Shown in pieces: positions 1 to 62,328 of a stretch of DNA of 64,000 nt; within the stretch, counting starts at the first letter, position 1, and every line of letters starts with the position of its first letter. Below the pieces are notes generated by a model. The model saw nothing but the letters and a program-made list of their open reading frames with translations. It had not been told where the DNA came from and did not search any database. Location of the stretch: assembly GCA_021159005.1 (NCBI GenBank), contig JAGGSN010000187.1, positions 6,972 to 70,971 of the forward strand. The letters run 5' to 3'. Source of the stretch: Candidatus Zixiibacteriota bacterium (lineage in GTDB: Bacteria > Zixibacteria > MSB-5A5 > UBA10806 > 4484-95). A program made the translations under genes and the position numbers.

Positions 1-451
1 CTCATCGTTTTGCAAGTATGCATCACCCTATAGCCGATGTCAACAATTAAAATACCATGAGTTTCCCCGTTTTTTTCAGAACCCGACCTGCGAATAATTT
101 ATTAAAATTTTAGTGGTTGGTGTACGTCCTCGCGCACTAACTTTTTTTCAAATTGTATATATCAATATCCAAAGAATGCATCTACCTAATTTCATGTATT
201 GTCAGGAACTCTTCATGCGTAGTTCCATGCGTTGTCAGTCCGCCCCGGCGGATTTCCAGACAACATCGGCGTTCACGCAAATGGGTTCCTGCCTTCGCGT
301 AAAGCTCGGTGTATTAATAGTCAAGACCGCAAGGAGGGTCTTGACTTGAAAGACGGTATCTAATGGGCTGATGAGTCAAGTCCCAAGCGGACTTGACCTG
401 CTTCGCAATGCATCGTTTGTTGAAAGAAATCTGATAATTTGCCTGAAAAAA

Positions 452-1438: not shown

Positions 1439-1832
1439 ATTTTTATCCCTGATAAAAATTTTAAAGGATCCATTACTTTTACTAAATGCTTTGTAAAATA
1501 TTTATGAATTCCTCTATATCTCTATATCGGTTTTTATAATTATCACTTTTTATCGATAAAGAATTTCTGCAATTATTCTTCAATTTTTTCAAAAGTTAAG
1601 TTGCATTATGAATCAAATTTCCTCTCGGGAATCCGACCTGCAATTGAACAGGAAAAAAATGGGGAGAGTTCCGATAGTTATTAGGTTGACTTAATAAATC
1701 CATTTTTATATGTTTTAATATGATAAGCGATTTACCTTCCAAAAGTTATTCAAACCTCATAATAATAAGCCTTAATATTAATGACCGAAATTAATTACAT
1801 AAATCGATATTGTTTCGATAATAATAGATGCG

Positions 1833-14633: not shown

Positions 14634-14682
14634 TATTTATCGGATGCTGAGGCTTTGCCGCGTGATAGATAATTTCAGGCAG

Positions 14683-14721
14683 TGTTAGTTCATAGTCCGC
14701 CTAAGGCGGATGAACTGACAC
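14683..14721. repeat. family-C long hairpin repeat (…TCAGTTCATAGTCCGCCTAAGGCGGATGAACTGACAC), copy 1, plus partner motif ACCTGCCTGAACAGTTAAATG at 14748-14780
   Basis: inverted repeat around a CCGCCtaaGGCGG core; near-identical copies at 17922 and 29265. Confidence 0.7.
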
Positions 14722-14865
14722 GTTTTACTACACAAAATCGGCAGGTTACGTTTCACTACGACCTGCCTGAACAGTTAAATGAGGGGCAGACGGGGACGTC
14801 TGCCGCCCACGCGAATCCTTGTCCACCATAGGCGGACTTAGGTTGTTGAAAAAGCAGCAACACCT

Positions 14866-16830: not shown

Positions 16831-16866
16831 GCAAACAAAAAGGCAGGTCTCGGAAAGACCTGCCCT
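16831..16866 (-). terminator. intrinsic terminator for the - strand gene 16895-17260
   Basis: revcomp GGGCAGGTCTttccgAGACCTGCC followed by TTTTTGTTT. Confidence 0.6.
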
Positions 16867-16894
16867 ACATAGTTTCCATCCTAATACCTGAAAA

Positions 16895-17370: not shown

Positions 17371-17832
17371 ATGGTAATGTCGGATTTTGATAGAAATATT
17401 GCCTTGGCTAAGTTCAAATCTTTTCTGGCGGAAAAAGGGTTGAAACTTACCGCTGAAAGGCTAATCATATTAGAGGAATCATTAGCCACCGAGGGGCATT
17501 TCGAGGCGGATGACCTTTTGATGATATTAAAAAATAAAGGCCGCAAAACATCGCGGGCGACTGTCTATCGGACTCTGGATATTATCGCTTTAGCTGGAAT
17601 TCTCCGCAAGGTTTATCTTGGCGATGCGCCGGTGCAGTTCGAGAAAATTACCGATGAGCCCCAGCATGACCACATGATTTGCCAGAAATGCGGCGCCAAA
17701 ATCGAATTTCATCTGCCCGAACTAAGCGAACTTCAAGAACAGCTCTGCGATGAACATGATTTTACCATGAAAGCCTATAGTCTGCAAATTTACGGTATAT
17801 GTTCTAATTGTTCGGAAAATAAGAGCGTTTAG
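17371..17832 (+). CDS. fur: Fur family transcriptional regulator
   Basis: winged-helix N-terminus, HDHMICQKCG, CSNC metal-binding motifs. Confidence 0.8.
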   Translation: MVMSDFDRNIALAKFKSFLAEKGLKLTAERLIILEESLATEGHFEADDLLMILKNKGRKTSRATVYRTLDIIALAGILRKVYLGDAPVQFEKITDEPQHDHMICQKCGAKIEFHLPELSELQEQLCDEHDFTMKAYSLQIYGICSNCSENKSV

Positions 17833-17866
17833 GGGTGTCCGCCTGAGGAGGACGCCCTCTTTTTTA
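17832..17866 (+). terminator. intrinsic terminator after fur, covarying homolog of the rplS terminator
   Basis: GGGGTGTCCgcctgaggaGGACGCCC then CTCTTTTTT. Confidence 0.6.
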
Positions 17867-17921
17867 TTATTCCCCTCTTGAGGGAGGTTAGGGGTATGTT
17901 ATTAACGCAAAATTTTATGTT

Positions 17922-17962
17922 GTGTCAGTTCGTAGTCCGCCTAAGGCGGATGAACCGGCACT
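17922..17962. repeat. family-C long hairpin repeat copy 2, plus partner motif at 17988-18021
   Basis: tgtcagttcgtagtccgcctaaggcggatgaaccggcac … cgtttcgctacgcatgcctaaacagttaaatg. Confidence 0.7.
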
Positions 17963-24917: not shown

Positions 24918-24949
24918 GGCTGGTGTGCATCACCGTGCGCCAGTTTTTA
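24918..24949 (+). terminator. family-A repeat variant followed by T-run, acting as intrinsic terminator
   Basis: GGCTGGTGTGCATCACCGTGCGCCAG + TTTTTAT 14 nt after the stop codon. Confidence 0.5.
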
Positions 24950-25238
24950 TGATATGCTGTCAGGTGCGGGGACATGACAGCGCTTGAAAATCATTTAAAG
25001 CTATTAATTAATATCACTGAATAGTCAGGAGTCGGAGACTCCTGACCTACTTCCTAAATATATAGTGAGTGCAAGGTAATTTTAAATATCAAATCTCACT
25101 CAGTTATCGCAGGTTGGGTTCTCCACCCCAGGCGGATGAGTGGAGCGAACGAGCGGACGAAGTCCTTTATTCAACCCGACACCTCTCACAACAATATAAT
25201 ATTTTTTCCTTTAGTAAAATCCCTATCATAATCGAAAT

Positions 25239-25269
25239 GTCGGGTTTCTCCCGTTGGTCGGAACCCGAC
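25239..25269. repeat. family-D hairpin repeat (GTCGGGTT…AACCCGAC)
   Basis: gtcgggtttctcccgttggtcggaacccgac; related copies 27812-27857 and 28054-28091; half-sites at 78-90 and 1630-1645. Confidence 0.6.
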
Positions 25270-25299
25270 CTGCTCTACTATAACAGATTGTGTGATAAC

Positions 25300-25413
25300 G
25301 GAAAACAAAAGAAACTCGCACTGACAGCATGTATGAAAAAACTCCTCTTGATAATACGGAGCATGCTAATTAACAAAACAACCTTTAATCCTGAAATAAA
25401 TAGCTTGACTTGA
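25300..25413 (+). pseudogene. IS110-family transposase C-terminal remnant
   Basis: NGKQKKLALTACMKKLLLIIRSMLINKTTFNPEI resembles the conserved C-terminus of IS110/IS1111 transposases; no N-terminal DEDD domain present upstream. Confidence 0.4.
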
Positions 25414-25428
25414 AAGACGGTATCTACA

Positions 25429-25458: not shown

Positions 25459-25863
25459 CTATTTATGAATATTCCATGATTTCTGAGGCAACGTTGCTAT
25501 TATTGCATTTTCGAGTCCGTTGATCATATCGATTTCCAAACCGCTACTATACTGCCTATTTTCGGATGGTTTCCATGCCAGAATCTTTACCTTTTTATTC
25601 TCTCTAAGAGCTTGTTTAATCAATTCCGCAATCCGTTCATTAGTCCCAGCGCCTATCATTCCTTGGTATCGTCCCATGCGGTCCTTCAAAGTAGTTGTTG
25701 AACTTTGACACGCACCGACATACATGACTTCATCATTAACCAAAAAAGCATAAATAACTCTATCATCTTTGCTTTTATTTAGACTAAAACGTACGCCACT
25801 GCTCAAGTTTTCATCTAATAAACATTCACCAACTTCATTAAATTCAAGTCCTGATATTTCCAT
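25459..25863 (-). CDS. small GIY-YIG-like nuclease family protein
   Basis: RVIYAFLVNDEVMYVGACQSS…R…NERIAE fits GIY-(10)-YVG…R…E pattern; 134 aa. Confidence 0.5.
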   Translation of the reverse strand: MEISGLEFNEVGECLLDENLSSGVRFSLNKSKDDRVIYAFLVNDEVMYVGACQSSTTTLKDRMGRYQGMIGAGTNERIAELIKQALRENKKVKILAWKPSENRQYSSGLEIDMINGLENAIIATLPQKSWNIHK

Positions 25864-26421: not shown

Positions 26422-27782
26422 TTCCTGCCTCTTTCCTTAGAATATTTCGACCCGGATTTGGAGCTTCCGCTTTTTAATTTGTCGCTGGTTTTAGAACGTA
26501 CAGGTTCGGCTTTTTTAGACTCGTTTTTCTTGATATTGTCTGACTTTTTATTATCTGTTTTTTTTACTGAAGTTTGTCCCGAATTCGGTTTTTTCTGCTT
26601 CTGCTTTTTATTTATAATAATATCTTTATCGTCAGAATTCAAGGATTTACTGCTTTTTTCCCGTTTAATCTGATATTCTCTATCTTTTTGGGGATAATTG
26701 TGAATATTATCCTTTTTGTTTTTTTCTTTAAATATTAATCCGCTATTTTGCTTATTAATCTTTTCCGTGTAGGTTCCATCATTAAAAATCCTATCCGAAT
26801 ACTTTTTCTGCACTCTTGATGGCGGAGTATGAAGCGGCCTGGTATGTTTAACTCGATATTTTTCCGCTTCCCTGACAAAACCGGGATCGTTGCGGTGCTT
26901 CTCCTGTTTAAATCTCCAATTTTTCATATTCGAGCGGCCATAATCGAAATCCCGGAATTTTCGTTTAATCTTGGCATCGACATAATATCGCTGACCTCTT
27001 GTTACATAAACATAATCCTGCCAGCAGGGATAGCCATGATAATAAATCCATACCCAGTGACGGCCAATATATATTTCCGGTATAAGAATTGGCGCGATGC
27101 CGAAATAACAGCCGTCAATCCAGATCTCGGCGCCCGGGTAATCACAGCCAATCCAGATACTGCCAATATAATACGGGTCATAACGCCAGTAGCGGTACCA
27201 ACTGTGATGCCGGTAGCGGTTATCGATAAAAAACATCGTCGAGGCGGAAATATAAGACCCATTCCTAACAATTCTATTATTTAGGTCGTTTACGAAAACC
27301 GCCATCTCGCCGCGCATCGTATGAACGAAATCATCATAGTAGCTGTCCCAGTTGCCATACTCAAAATATTCATAACGCATGAATTCGGGAGGGTCAATCC
27401 GGTAGGGGCTGGCAACGGCGTAAATATATTCCTTGCCCTTAGGTCCGGTTACCTCAAGCCGGTAATCATCATAAGCATCGGGGATACGGTAAACCTCTTC
27501 GCCGCGAATAAAACAATCGCTGTTGTAATCGGATGGGAAAAGAAGGCTGACATTGCCGGCTGGATCGATATCATAAATCACCGCATAGCAATCCTCCGAA
27601 GCGCGAAAATAAACAGCCACATCTTCGCCGAAATAATATGTCGCTCCATCGCTTTTATTAACCCAGACATCAATCTCAAGGTTGTCAACCCTGCTGATGC
27701 CGTGTTTCTGGTCGGCGGAGGCGGCAACTGTCATAATTGCGGCCAGCGCTATTACCATTAAATTTCTCAAATGCTTTTTCAT
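26418..27782 (-). CDS. secreted DUF4384/PEGA domain protein with Trp/Tyr-rich region and Lys-rich C-terminal tail
   Basis: signal peptide MKKHLRNLMVIALAAIMTVAASA; PGAEIWIDGCYFGIAP PEGA-like motif; true start at 27782 (the track ORF extends upstream only by reading through repeats). Confidence 0.6.
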   Translation of the reverse strand: MKKHLRNLMVIALAAIMTVAASADQKHGISRVDNLEIDVWVNKSDGATYYFGEDVAVYFRASEDCYAVIYDIDPAGNVSLLFPSDYNSDCFIRGEEVYRIPDAYDDYRLEVTGPKGKEYIYAVASPYRIDPPEFMRYEYFEYGNWDSYYDDFVHTMRGEMAVFVNDLNNRIVRNGSYISASTMFFIDNRYRHHSWYRYWRYDPYYIGSIWIGCDYPGAEIWIDGCYFGIAPILIPEIYIGRHWVWIYYHGYPCWQDYVYVTRGQRYYVDAKIKRKFRDFDYGRSNMKNWRFKQEKHRNDPGFVREAEKYRVKHTRPLHTPPSRVQKKYSDRIFNDGTYTEKINKQNSGLIFKEKNKKDNIHNYPQKDREYQIKREKSSKSLNSDDKDIIINKKQKQKKPNSGQTSVKKTDNKKSDNIKKNESKKAEPVRSKTSDKLKSGSSKSGSKYSKERGRK

Positions 27783-27811
27783 ATCAACCACCTTGTTTAA
27801 TATTATTGTAG

Positions 27812-27857
27812 GTCGGGTTCTCCGCCTAAGGCGGACCGTAGCGGGGAGAAACCCGAC
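27812..27857. repeat. family-D hairpin repeat containing CCGCCTAAGGCGG core
   Basis: ggtcgggttctccgcctaaggcggaccgtagcggggagaaacccgac. Confidence 0.6.
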
Positions 27858-27888
27858 GCCGTTTGCTTTATTATGGTTTGAGGCATGC

Positions 27889-27999
27889 GAGGGCGTATGC
27901 AATACGCCCCTACGCGGAATAGCATGCGAGGGCGTATGCAATACGCCCCTACGCGGAATAATAGCATGCGAGGGCGTATGCAATACGGCCCCTACGCGG
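27889..27999. repeat. three tandem family-B repeats (39-42 bp period), no unique spacers
   Basis: gcatgcgagggcgtatgcaatacgcccctacgcggaata x3. Confidence 0.8.
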
Positions 28000-28011
28000 A
28001 ACAGTAATTGT

Positions 28012-28038
28012 GGCTGGTGTACGTCCTCGTGCACCAGC
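28012..28038. repeat. family-A hairpin repeat
   Basis: ggctggtgtacgtcctcgtgcaccagc then caataagtt. Confidence 0.8.
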
Positions 28039-28053
28039 AATAAGTTATTGTAA

Positions 28054-28091
28054 GTCGGGTTCCGACCCAACGCAGTAGGGGAGAAACCCGA
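28054..28091. repeat. family-D hairpin repeat
   Basis: gtcgggttccgacccaacgcagtaggggagaaacccgat. Confidence 0.55.
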
Positions 28092-28219
28092 TACAACCAC
28101 TTCATTTAACCCGATGCCGCTTGATTTGTTTTCATCTTTCATCATCGCTGCCTTTTTCTACAGCTGGTATCCGCCATTGACGGACACCAACCATATTACC
28201 CTATAAGAAATTATGCCCC

Positions 28220-29047: not shown

Positions 29048-29264
29048 TGAAACCTCCTGTTGTTATCGTCTGATAATTAATTAATCAATAATCATGCCAA
29101 AATCGCTAATTCTGTAACATGCAGTCTTTCAGGGAGATATGGTTTTACGTAAAAATGTCGGTTGCTGTTATGCACAATATTTGTTCGTTTGGCAACTATA
29201 GTTGTGCATGGCTATTATTCACATTGCAGGGAAATCCGAGCCGCCTAAACATTTGATTCGGGGT

Positions 29265-29304
29265 TGTGTCAGTTTGCAGTCCGCCTAAGGCGGATGAACT
29301 GACA
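29265..29304. repeat. family-C long hairpin repeat copy 3
   Basis: tgtgtcagtttgcagtccgcctaaggcggatgaactgacaca. Confidence 0.7.
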
Positions 29305-29566
29305 CATATAGCGAAGACAGGAACCACTGCCTGATTCCGGTAATATAAAAGTATCAATGTTGATAGGGAAATATTCCTGACAACGCTTGAATTAATCACT
29401 CCCTGATAATTTTTTAAATTTTGTAAAAACAAAATAATATCAACTTTGTTAATTGTGGTTAGGTTATTCTATATAATTGTGATTCATAGTCTTAAATGGA
29501 ATTATTAATGTTAAGCAATTGGCTTGCCAAACCGATAAAATATTTTAAATGTTTTAAAAAAAGTTC

Positions 29567-29716: not shown

Positions 29717-29807
29717 ATTAAACAGAATATGGTTTGCCGAGTGTAGAAATTATTATTGCAGTTCGGTGATTAAATAATGAATTTATGTGGCAGGAGAAGG
29801 ATGACTG

Positions 29808-31016
29808 ATGGCCAAGGAGAAATTTGAGCGAACGAAACCGCATGTGAATGTAGGTACGATAGGTCATGTTGATCATGGCAAGACTACATTAACGGCGGCG
29901 ATGACGATGATATTGGGTCGCAAGGGTCAGGCGGCGGTTCGCGATTTTGATTCGATTGACAATGCTCCGGAGGAGCGTGAGCGCGGCATAACGATAGCGA
30001 CGGCGCATGTTGAGTATGAGACCGATAGGCGTCATTATGCTCATGTTGATTGTCCTGGTCACGCCGATTATGTTAAGAACATGATAACGGGTGCGGCCCA
30101 GATGGATGGCGCGATATTGGTAGTTAGCGCGGCGGATGGTCCGATGCCTCAGACGCGCGAGCATATATTATTGGCACGTCAGGTAGGAGTTCCTTACATA
30201 GTTGTATTCATGAACAAGATAGACCAGGTAGATGATCCTGAGTTATTAGACTTGGTGGAGCTTGAGGTACGGGATTTATTGAGTCAGTATCAATTTCCGG
30301 GTGATGACATTCCGATAATTCGTGGTTCGGCATTAGAGGCTATGAATCGCGGCGCTGATGAGAGCGTACCTTATGATGATCCTGCTTTTAAGTGTGTGCA
30401 TGAGTTGATGGATGCGGTAGACAGCTATATACCGGAGCCGAAGCGTGATATTGACAAGCCGTTTTTATTGCCGATAGAGGATGTATTTTCGATAACGGGT
30501 CGAGGTACGGTAGGAACGGGTCGAGTTGAGCGCGGCAAGATAAAGACCGGTGATCCTGTTGAGCGTGTTGGTGTTAGGGAGACTCGCAAGACGGTAGTAA
30601 CGGGTGTTGAGATGTTTCGGAAGATATTGGATTATGCTCAGGCGGGCGATAATGTAGGTTTGTTATTGCGCGGAGTAGATAAGAATGATCTTGAGCGCGG
30701 CATGGTTTTGGCGGCGCCTGGCAGTATTAAGCCGCACAAGAAGTTTAAGGGAGAGGTATACATTTTGACGAAGGAAGAGGGTGGTCGTCACACGCCGTTT
30801 TTCAATGGTTATCGTCCGCAGTTTTATTTTCGGACGACGGATGTAACAGGTACGGTGAAGCTTCCGGAAGGTGTTGAGATGGTAATGCCTGGTGATAATG
30901 TAACAGTAGAAGGCGAGTTAATAACGCCGATAGCGATGGAGAAAGAGCTTCGTTTTGCTATCCGTGAAGGCGGCCGCACCGTAGGCGCCGGCGTTATTAG
31001 CGAAATAATAGAGTAA
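29808..31016 (+). CDS. tuf: elongation factor Tu (copy 1, tufB-type position)
   Basis: [25 protein letters not shown]; 402 aa; identical to the copy at 45482. Confidence 0.95.
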
Positions 31017-45417: not shown

Positions 45418-45481
45418 ATAGGGACGTTATTTTTATTTTTTAGTGATTTGATAATGGAAAATAAAGTTAAGGAGATGACTG

Positions 45482-46690
45482 ATGGCCAAGGAGAAATTTG
45501 AGCGAACGAAACCGCATGTGAATGTAGGTACGATAGGTCATGTTGATCATGGCAAGACTACATTAACGGCGGCGATGACGATGATATTGGGTCGCAAGGG
45601 TCAGGCGGCGGTTCGCGATTTTGATTCGATTGACAATGCTCCGGAGGAGCGTGAGCGCGGCATAACGATAGCGACGGCGCATGTTGAGTATGAGACCGAT
45701 AGGCGTCATTATGCTCATGTTGATTGTCCTGGTCACGCCGATTATGTTAAGAACATGATAACGGGTGCGGCCCAGATGGATGGCGCGATATTGGTAGTTA
45801 GCGCGGCGGATGGTCCGATGCCTCAGACGCGCGAGCATATATTATTGGCACGTCAGGTAGGAGTTCCTTACATAGTTGTATTCATGAACAAGATAGACCA
45901 GGTAGATGATCCTGAGTTATTAGACTTGGTGGAGCTTGAGGTACGGGATTTATTGAGTCAGTATCAATTTCCGGGTGATGACATTCCGATAATTCGTGGT
46001 TCGGCATTAGAGGCTATGAATCGCGGCGCTGATGAGAGCGTACCTTATGATGATCCTGCTTTTAAGTGTGTGCATGAGTTGATGGATGCGGTAGACAGCT
46101 ATATACCGGAGCCGAAGCGTGATATTGACAAGCCGTTTTTATTGCCGATAGAGGATGTATTTTCGATAACGGGTCGAGGTACGGTAGGAACGGGTCGAGT
46201 TGAGCGCGGCAAGATAAAGACCGGTGATCCTGTTGAGCGTGTTGGTGTTAGGGAGACTCGCAAGACGGTAGTAACGGGTGTTGAGATGTTTCGGAAGATA
46301 TTGGATTATGCTCAGGCGGGCGATAATGTAGGTTTGTTATTGCGCGGAGTAGATAAGAATGATCTTGAGCGCGGCATGGTTTTGGCGGCGCCTGGCAGTA
46401 TTAAGCCGCACAAGAAGTTTAAGGGAGAGGTATACATTTTGACGAAGGAAGAGGGTGGTCGTCACACGCCGTTTTTCAATGGTTATCGTCCGCAGTTTTA
46501 TTTTCGGACGACGGATGTAACAGGTACGGTGAAGCTTCCGGAAGGTGTTGAGATGGTAATGCCTGGTGATAATGTAACAGTAGAAGGCGAGTTAATAACG
46601 CCGATAGCGATGGAGAAAGAGCTTCGTTTTGCTATCCGTGAAGGCGGCCGCACCGTAGGCGCCGGCGTTATTAGCGAAATAATAGAGTAA
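45482..46690 (+). CDS. tuf: elongation factor Tu (copy 2, tufA-type position)
   Basis: protein identical to copy 1; nucleotide identity extends from ~10 nt upstream of ATG to the stop. Confidence 0.95.
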
Positions 46691-61945: not shown

Positions 61946-62328
61946 AATGCCGCTATATTAGTATTTTGTTTTAACCCAAGTTTTTGCAGTAGAAGTTTAT
62001 TATAGCAGTGATTATCACATAAAGCATTGCAATGAATCGATATCATTACACCATTTTAGCTCGGTTTACTAAGCGGTGCTTGGCAGCCAGGGAAAATAAC
62101 CTCACAGATAAAGTGAAATATTAGAAAACTGTCTTAATACTATTACAATCGTCAACATGCCCCTAAATCTCCTCTCAAGAGGGGGACTTCGTTAACATAT
62201 CACAAATGAGAATTGCCATAAAACCCTAAATCCTCCGCCATTTACGGGGGACTTTTAGATTGCATAGCCATATAACGTGTTAGCGCAAATATTATTCCTC
62301 TCTCGAGAGGGGTTAGGGGTGTGTTATG

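Follow-up and report, generated by a model that had tools for sequence, protein, structure and literature searches.

REP sequences and their RAYT tyrosine transposases are defined by a GT(A/G)G head, a palindrome and a rayt gene placed between two inverted REPs (Nunvar 2010, PMC2817692), and definitions of both have also been given by Di Nocera 2013 (PMC3733652). A mode of recognition in which the palindrome is bulged was described by Corneloup 2021 (PMC8266576). A literature search returned no paper linking Zixibacteria with REP, RAYT or REPIN terms.

Here we analyse a 64,000-nucleotide stretch of DNA (the window) from a Candidatus Zixiibacteriota MAG, in which a sequence-only reading had described several families of intergenic repeats, among them D and E. 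The window lies on the metagenome scaffold SPET22-1 scaffold_53, and its SecY shows 100% identity to an NCBI protein from a ‘candidate division Zixibacteria’ MAG. That D and E are real repeat families held up; what the repeats of the window are had not been recognised, namely GTAG/GTGG-headed REPs tied to RAYT. We conclude that family D is very probably a GTAG-tagged REP family copied by a RAYT tyrosine transposase.

Anatomy of family D in the window

The window contains six D copies, three of them decayed, within about 80 kb of the MAG read in total. All six are intergenic:

27808-27857, plus strand: D-family REP; GTAG head, outer stem GTCGGGTT/AACCCGAC, apical hairpin TCCGCCTAAGGCGGA
28050-28092, plus strand: D-family REP; GTAA head, right arm ending in ..CCCGAT
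25239-25273, minus strand: D-family REP, short form; GCAG followed by GTCGGGTTCCGACCAACGGGAGAAACCCGAC; ssDNA fold z -3.9
25109-25181, plus strand: degenerate long D copy; GCAG followed by GTTGGGTTC...CAACCCGAC; absent from the sequence-only reading
about 55-91, minus strand: decayed D copy; head GCAG and left arm GTCGGGTTC intact, right arm mutated
1610-1642, minus strand: decayed D copy; GCAG followed by GTCGGATTCC..., with head and left arm GCAG-GTCGGATTC

Once oriented, the window copies read (G[T/C]A[G/A])-GTCGGGTTC-...-GGAGAAACCCGAC, with the head GTAG once, GTAA once and GCAG four times; the family consensus is GTAG-GTCGGGTTCCGA-(variable inner hairpin)-GAGAAACCCGAC-A. Each element begins 5′ with GTAG or GCAG; behind this head follow an outer stem of 8 bp (GTCGGGTT/AACCCGAC), a conserved internal loop (C-CGA / GAGA-A) and an apical hairpin whose sequence varies while its pairing is kept. 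As ssDNA, the window copies fold at -9.5 to -15.8 kcal/mol (z -2.7 to -3.9), with the 27808-27857 copy at -15.8 kcal/mol and z -2.9. The copies at 25109-25181 and 25239-25273 form an inverted, REPIN-like doublet.

The three D hairpins reported earlier at 25239-25269, 27812-27857 and 28054-28091 (GTCGGGTT..AACCCGA(C)) are all present. Two half-sites reported with them also exist, at slightly different coordinates: GAACCCGACCTGC lies at 79-91 rather than 78-90, and GAATCCGACCTGCA at 1629-1642 rather than 1632-1645. On the minus strand, both half-sites are the head and left arm of decayed full D copies. The pattern GTCGGGTT-N5-35-AACCCGA matched five times on the two strands of the window, compared with zero matches in 100 shuffles.

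Distribution and variation of D across genomes

A scan of one genome per GTDB species with the pattern GTCGGGTTC-N8-38-GAGAAACCCGA returned at least 142 matches at no fewer than 120 loci, against a chance expectation of about 8 matches by our own estimate. Among the matches listed, eight loci look like chance, as they come from the wrong phyla and have no GTAG head or flanking signature (Gammaproteobacteria, Pseudomonas, Microbacteriaceae, Saccharibacteria, Kuenenia, Spirochaetaceae and Bacteroidota). The scan yielded at least 134 non-chance D copies in at least about 55 species-level MAGs. A chance origin of D was rejected on this excess over the expected matches and on the absence of any match in the shuffles. 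The D-bearing MAGs listed are labelled Zixibacteria (about 33), Ignavibacteria (about 16) and others including Calditrichaeota, FCB-group bacterium and Deferrimicrobium, where the labels Ignavibacteria, Deferrimicrobium and Calditrichaeota could reflect mis-binning.

Among the matches listed, D recurs many times per genome in many related genomes, an indirect answer to the refuting condition named in the sequence-only reading, a lack of genome-wide enrichment. Close inverted D pairs occur at many loci. The 3.98-Mb Zixibacteria chromosome OY969724 has at least 16 strict matches in the parts examined. No D was found in viral contigs. When L087 is compared with L012, L014 and L092, one D copy, together with 15 nt of flank on each side, is almost identical between a MAG with an Ignavibacteriaceae label and the Zixibacteria chromosome OY969724. 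This match suggests a larger repeat unit in common, a recent transfer or mis-binning.

The search pattern itself accounts for part of the conservation seen in the outer arms between genomes. The pattern left the head free, and directly 5′ of the match stands GTAG in 116 and GCAG in 9 of the 134 listed copies. Further features outside the pattern, CGA after GGGTTC and C-A 3′ of the right arm, are shared by nearly all listed copies. The inner segment is hypervariable, with 125 distinct sequences among the 134 listed copies, and folds at a mean of -6.4 kcal/mol, compared with -2.9 kcal/mol after shuffling. In 32 gap-free D copies, double compensatory changes were found at 7/7 inner-stem pairs. 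The number of compensatory cells was 57, compared with 21.9 +/- 3.6 in shuffles (0/500 reached 57) and 8-21 in slid controls.

The apex of the 27808-27857 copy contains CCGCCTAAGGCGG, the core of family C, just as the sequence-only reading had noted when it suggested that modules recombine. Because the apex is hypervariable family-wide and CCGCC..GGCGG apices recur in three other MAGs (five D copies), this C-core is a recurrent D variant, and no recombination in this genome is needed to account for it.

Genomic placement of D and a possible RNA function

D is extragenic: 21% of the listed copies fall within ORFs of 100 aa or more, compared with 78% of random positions. Relative to co-directional flanking genes, its orientation is split 27:21, showing no bias. 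This absence of strand preference, together with the extragenic placement, argues for a DNA-level rather than a transcript-level element.

It is very unlikely, in our judgement, that D (and E) are primarily structured RNAs, acting as mRNA 3′-end stabilisers, attenuators or small RNAs under selection for their RNA fold. The inner stem of D does covary and tolerates G-T pairs, many D copies are located 3′ of genes, and some of the window's other REPs have T-tails and are terminator-like (16840-16866, 24918-24945 and 17845-17862). For REPs in general, Di Nocera 2013 (PMC3733652) makes the case that transcription is common. However, an RNA function sits poorly with the 27:21 orientation, with RAYT genes placed between inverted D copies and with orthologous sites that differ in D presence or absence, both described below. 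No D copy has a T-tail, and in the window tRNAs alone pass the Rfam gathering threshold, with no match over D or E at E<=1. A secondary RNA role for D is possible.

Further identities were considered and rejected for D. A ribozyme or known RNA motif was dismissed on the lack of an Rfam match and of strand bias. For an intrinsic terminator, no D copy appeared in the terminator scan, and the 3′ flank of the 134 listed copies reads CA.., not a T-run. CRISPR, tandem array and integron attC were set aside on the irregular spacing and the lack of an R''/R' core.

Insertion polymorphism and mobility of D

The related contig L137 carries flanking genes that are 82-88% identical to those of the window. 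The orthologous intergenic stretch that separates its DUF4384/PEGA gene from the lipoprotein gene upstream is without the D copies 27808-27857 and 28050-28092, and keeps the A copy and two B-like copies. Since both D copies at 27.8-28.1 kb are absent from L137, they represent insertion polymorphisms. At the inverted doublet, positions 25142-25271, including the spacer, are 76% identical to a stretch of L074, a MAG labelled Ignavibacteria. With doublet and spacer conserved in L074, the pair behaves as a REPIN-like unit.

L137 and the window also differ in gene order nearby. At L137 2163/2168, corresponding to window positions 26761 and 23604, the DUF4384/PEGA gene (reverse) lies right next to the purQ region (forward). 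L137 lacks the segment at 24.4-26.8 kb of the window, with the D doublet, an IS110-like fragment and orphan ORFs, which reflects either a rearrangement or a chimeric contig. One 134-aa orphan ORF (25459-25863, minus strand) lies between repeat clusters and gave no Pfam match and an insignificant NCBIfam match. The IS110-like fragment adjoins the GCAG head of a D copy (25273/25274), and its ORF ends in ..LYYNRLCDNGKQKKLALTACMKKLLLIIRSMLINKTTFNPE:

25274-25398, plus strand: possible IS110-family transposase C-terminal remnant; NCBIfam transpos_IS110, E 0.0096, profile positions 301-342 of 343

Judging from the profile match, this fragment may be what is left of an IS110 element cut off at a REP; it had no PDB match and no homologue in the loci examined. 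A genuine remnant would agree with the known tendency of IS110-family elements to insert into REPs (Tobes & Pareja 2006, PMC1525189). That tendency, and the start of the fragment exactly at the head of the 25239-25273 copy, could be taken to mean that D hairpins are the ends or target scars of another mobile element (an IS110/IS1111-type element guided to the palindromes, or a DDE-transposon MITE) and not RAYT substrates. We consider this extremely unlikely: the match is weak (E 0.0096) and concerns one of six D copies, and the IS elements of PMC1525189 use REPs as targets and do not generate them. Moreover, none of the 134 listed D copies fits terminal inverted repeats with target duplications, and the sole gene found recurrently between D copies encodes a Y1 transposase.

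RAYT genes bracketed by inverted D copies

E. coli YafM served as the first tblastn probe, solely for locating ORFs. Y1-transposase ORFs were identified in four of the loci examined, and 4/4 scored above the curated cutoffs of Pfam Y1_Tnp and NCBIfam NF047646. Inverted D copies bracket the gene within 4-30 nt at five independent loci, L055, L064, L185, L189 and L230/L231. Scored directly, the L055 and L064 proteins reached 135 and 105 bits against NF047646, ‘REP-associated tyrosine transposase’ (cutoff 80), and passed Pfam Y1_Tnp; their sequences show HUH motifs and the catalytic Tyr region. In L055, one D copy lies 27 nt upstream of the RAYT gene and an inverted D copy 4 nt past its stop codon, and L064 has the same arrangement. 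The genes in L185, L189 and L230/L231 are homologues of the L055/L064 RAYT (45-100% identity), and the inverted D copies that bracket them are GTAG-headed.

The REP at the L189 RAYT (GTAGGTCGGGTTCCGACCAATGGGAGAAACCCGAC) is nearly identical to the window copy 25239-25273. L217 holds a more divergent RAYT (45% identity) that has a different though related REP on its flanks, GTAG-GTCGGAACC..GGTTCCGAC, as enzyme-repeat co-evolution predicts. At E<=1e-20, 148 RAYT homologues were found, and all organism-named ones are from Zixibacteria; the complete Zixibacteria genome LS998015 encodes both D-type and A-type RAYT homologues (P0065, P0322). By tblastn, no RAYT gene was detected in the 64-kb window or in about 14 kb of extra scaffold beyond both ends, and the homologues P0070, P0025, P0120 and P0041 led to no cognate RAYT from the window's samples.

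By analogy with described systems, a single-copy RAYT (TnpA-REP, an HUH Y1 tyrosine transposase) would bind the folded ssDNA hairpin together with its GTAG head, cut beside the hairpin and rejoin the strand. Single REPs and inverted doublets (REPINs) would in this way be copied or moved among intergenic sites. We infer these catalytic steps of the D-RAYT from work on the TnpA-REP of E. coli, S. maltophilia and Marinomonas (PMC3479197, PMC8266576), and also infer that a D-type RAYT is present in this particular MAG.

Families A, B and C and the wider repeat repertoire

The earlier impression of several repeat families per intergenic region proved correct: the 6.7 kb of intergenic sequence contain about 30 small palindromic repeats. 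Counted without regard to family, GT[AG]G/GCAG-tagged hairpins number 16 in these 6.7 kb, compared with a mean of 1.9 and a maximum of 6 in 100 shuffles. Outside D and E, the repeats are:

28007-28037, plus strand: A-family REP; GTGG-CTGGTGTACGTCCTCGTGCACCAG-C; z -6.3; conserved in L137
near 110, 16410, 16610, 16636, 16714, 24913, 25431, 25889, 62323 and 62355: other A copies (about 10 in all)
27883-28001, minus strand: tandem array of three B-family REPs; reverse-complement unit GTAG-GGGCGTATTGCATACGCCC-TCGC
17920-17961, plus strand: C-family element; GTAG-TCCGCCTAAGGCGGA within the outer inverted repeat GTGTCAGTTC..GAACYGRCAC; z -3.5
14679-14720 and 29263-29305: other C copies
375-401, 16842-16868, 25024-25050 and 14783-14810, all minus strand: other GTAG/GTGG-headed palindromes; GCAG-GTCAAGTCC.., GTAG-GGCAGGTC.., GTAG-GTCAGGAGTC.. 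and GTGG-GCGGCAGAC..

These extra GTAG/GTGG palindrome types bring the number of REP-like families in the window to more than five. The cluster at 27.8-28.1 kb has the order D - 3xB - A - D, and further mixed clusters lie at 16.4-16.9 kb and 62.1-62.4 kb. What had looked like a rich repertoire thus consists of several REP families in BIME-like clusters. A, B, C and several other hairpins of the window are further GT[A/G]G-headed REP families, each probably with its own RAYT.

A 20-mer derived from family A was found at no fewer than 55 metagenome loci, with GC contents from 39 to 68%. At least about 50 A-matching loci (GC 39-60%) have a GTGG-type head beside the match; a few others, of high GC, appear to match by chance. 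At 14783-14810 the window has an A-related REP (GTGG-..GGCAGAC-loop-GTCTGCC). Inverted A-related GTGG REPs enclose a second clade of RAYT, of about 174 aa, in L110 (399-1128), L225 (885-1556) and L226 (890-1525). A third RAYT, at L092 3648-4249, is flanked by different palindromes, CCCACGGCTTGCCGTGGG.

Such a repertoire had been called atypical for a compact ribosomal-gene neighbourhood, a description that does not fit: there are no repeats at about 31.5-61.9 kb, the region of rpoBC and the r-protein operons. Every repeat sits in the intergenic regions flanking these operons, a placement that is usual for REP-rich genomes (Di Nocera 2013, PMC3733652).

A 23-nt exact repeat, CTTGACTTGAAAGACGGTATCTA, assigned to none of the families, occurs at 340-362 and 25404-25426, each time beside other hairpins. 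The two tuf (EF-Tu) genes, at 29808-31016 and 45482-46690, share 300 bases at 100% identity (29800-30099 / 45474-45773), beginning 8 bases upstream of each start codon; the identical 5′ stretches suggest gene conversion. The Logan contigs L002 and L003, from the same organism, end inside the cluster matching window 27.8-28.2 kb.

Family E, a hairpin-plus-tail repeat

Family E is a real, widely shared small hairpin-plus-tail repeat that occurs in REP clusters and is separate from D. Its consensus is TTCCCCTCTYGAGAGGGG-TTAGGGGTGTG, with the core TTCCCCTCTYGAGAGGGG-(A)TT(T)AGGGGTGTGTT. The two copies that the sequence-only reading had placed at 17862-17900 and 62288-62325 are genuine; their boundaries are 17865-17902 and 62290-62327, and they share 33/38 bases. 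Two hairpins it had seen nearby, both starting CCCTAAATC, are also real and are E-like copies in the opposite orientation:

17865-17902, plus strand: E copy; TTATTCCCCTCTTGAGGGAGGTTAGGGGTATGTTAT
62290-62327, plus strand: E copy; TTATTCCTCTCTCGAGAGGGGTTAGGGGTGTGTTAT
62161-62190, minus strand: E-like copy; reverse complement GTCCCCCTCTTGAGAGGAGATTTAGGG
62224-62256, minus strand: E-like copy; differing hairpin sequence

E was not classed as a REP because it has no 5′ GTAG head, TTAG standing instead 3′ of the hairpin, and because no transposase, Y1 included, was found near E in any E-bearing locus examined, IMG/VR contigs among them. Its hairpin energy is weak (z -0.3 to -1.1). The E tail TTAGGGGTGT equals the head and left arm of a B-like REP at 17830-17864, a resemblance that serves as a lead only.

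E adjoins D copies in two other MAGs, L032 and L075, where its flanks are unrelated. Six IMG/VR contigs together hold 16 E copies whose 27-nt core is identical; these copies are intergenic, in both orientations and sometimes arranged as inverted doublets. In one of these contigs (2636415943_000003; L201 1310-2244), two inverted E copies bracket an AbiJ-like (abortive infection) gene. E had no match in INPHARED phages or PLSDB plasmids, a result to which the low-complexity filter may contribute. At rplQ-prfB, comparison of E with relatives ended where synteny breaks, after rplQ. Inverted E doublets form long hairpins that draw spurious miRNA-family matches (L210 4740-4830, L214 8516-8621).

A possible though unlikely explanation is that E is not mobile and acts as a regulatory or terminator-like module, or as a phage-related recombination or packaging signal, that is found twice in the window by happenstance. 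The identical 27-nt core at intergenic sites in six IMG/VR contigs, once bracketing the AbiJ-like gene in a moron-like manner, is compatible with this, and E2 and one E-like copy are weakly terminator-like. However, the T-tail is not consistent, and copies of E point either way with respect to the genes beside them and also form inverted doublets. Its flanks are also unrelated in L032 and L075, which are different phylum-level MAGs, and it is always within REP clusters.

Implications

A joint reading, which we entertain only tentatively and hold to be doubtful, treats D as a ‘modular’ REP with a passenger apex and E as a distinct, RAYT-independent mobile hairpin of FCB-group bacteria/(pro)phages. 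For D, the basal stem, internal loop and GTAG head are identical in at least about 55 species, and the apex varies and repeatedly takes the cores of other REP families. If the modular reading were true, the system would be very old in the FCB group or horizontally transferred between phyla.

As a GTAG-tagged REP family copied by a RAYT, D would extend REP-RAYT systems to Zixibacteria. REP clusters account for the crowded, hairpin-rich intergenic regions and for short-read assembly breaks. The at least 125 apical variants on one invariant base form a data set on which parts of a REP the RAYT reads. As so many variants share one base, the RAYT appears indifferent to the apex, which suggests that it reads the base and the GTAG head. 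In similar MAGs, such repeats should be masked or annotated before the prediction of ncRNAs, terminators or CRISPR-like arrays. E provides a lead toward a separate element.

Comparison with known systems

The closest counterparts of D are GTAG REPs with a RAYT, the ‘REPtrons’ represented by E. coli REP/BIME with YafM and by Stenotrophomonas SMAG (PMC2817692, PMC3733652). D shares with them an imperfect palindrome headed 5′ by GT(A/G)G, the extragenic location in both orientations, the clusters and inverted dimers, the presence of several families per genome and the RAYT between inverted copies. As in the E. coli group REPs, the stem of D is broken by an internal loop (Corneloup 2021, PMC8266576). 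Unlike the surveyed REPtrons (PMC2817692, PMC3733652), D has its hosts among Zixibacteria and neighbouring FCB-group MAGs. It also departs from classical REPs in having two helices, of which the apical one is hypervariable (125 variants in 134 listed copies). Whereas many classical REP families are species- or genus-specific, the basal stem and loop of D are common to at least about 55 species.

The D doublet at 25109-25273, like D pairs at many other loci, resembles the REPINs of Pseudomonas fluorescens SBW25 (Bertels & Rainey 2011, PMC3116915) in being inverted and 20-100 nt apart. In contrast to SBW25, the window has singletons and tandem copies at least as often as doublets, and replication of the doublet as a unit would be by analogy with those REPINs.

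For E, the nearest likeness is to the TIRs flanking ‘TIRYT’ tyrosine transposases, which share the motif GGGGWSAS (Di Nocera 2013, PMC3733652). The E tail GGGGTGTG fits 7/8 positions of this motif, and E forms inverted doublets as TIRs do; unlike TIRs, no E copy has a tyrosine transposase beside it, and the likeness serves as a lead only.

Finally, although the clusters of the window are without the regular alternation of defined units with fixed linkers, they resemble enterobacterial BIMEs in combining several different palindromic units within one intergenic region.
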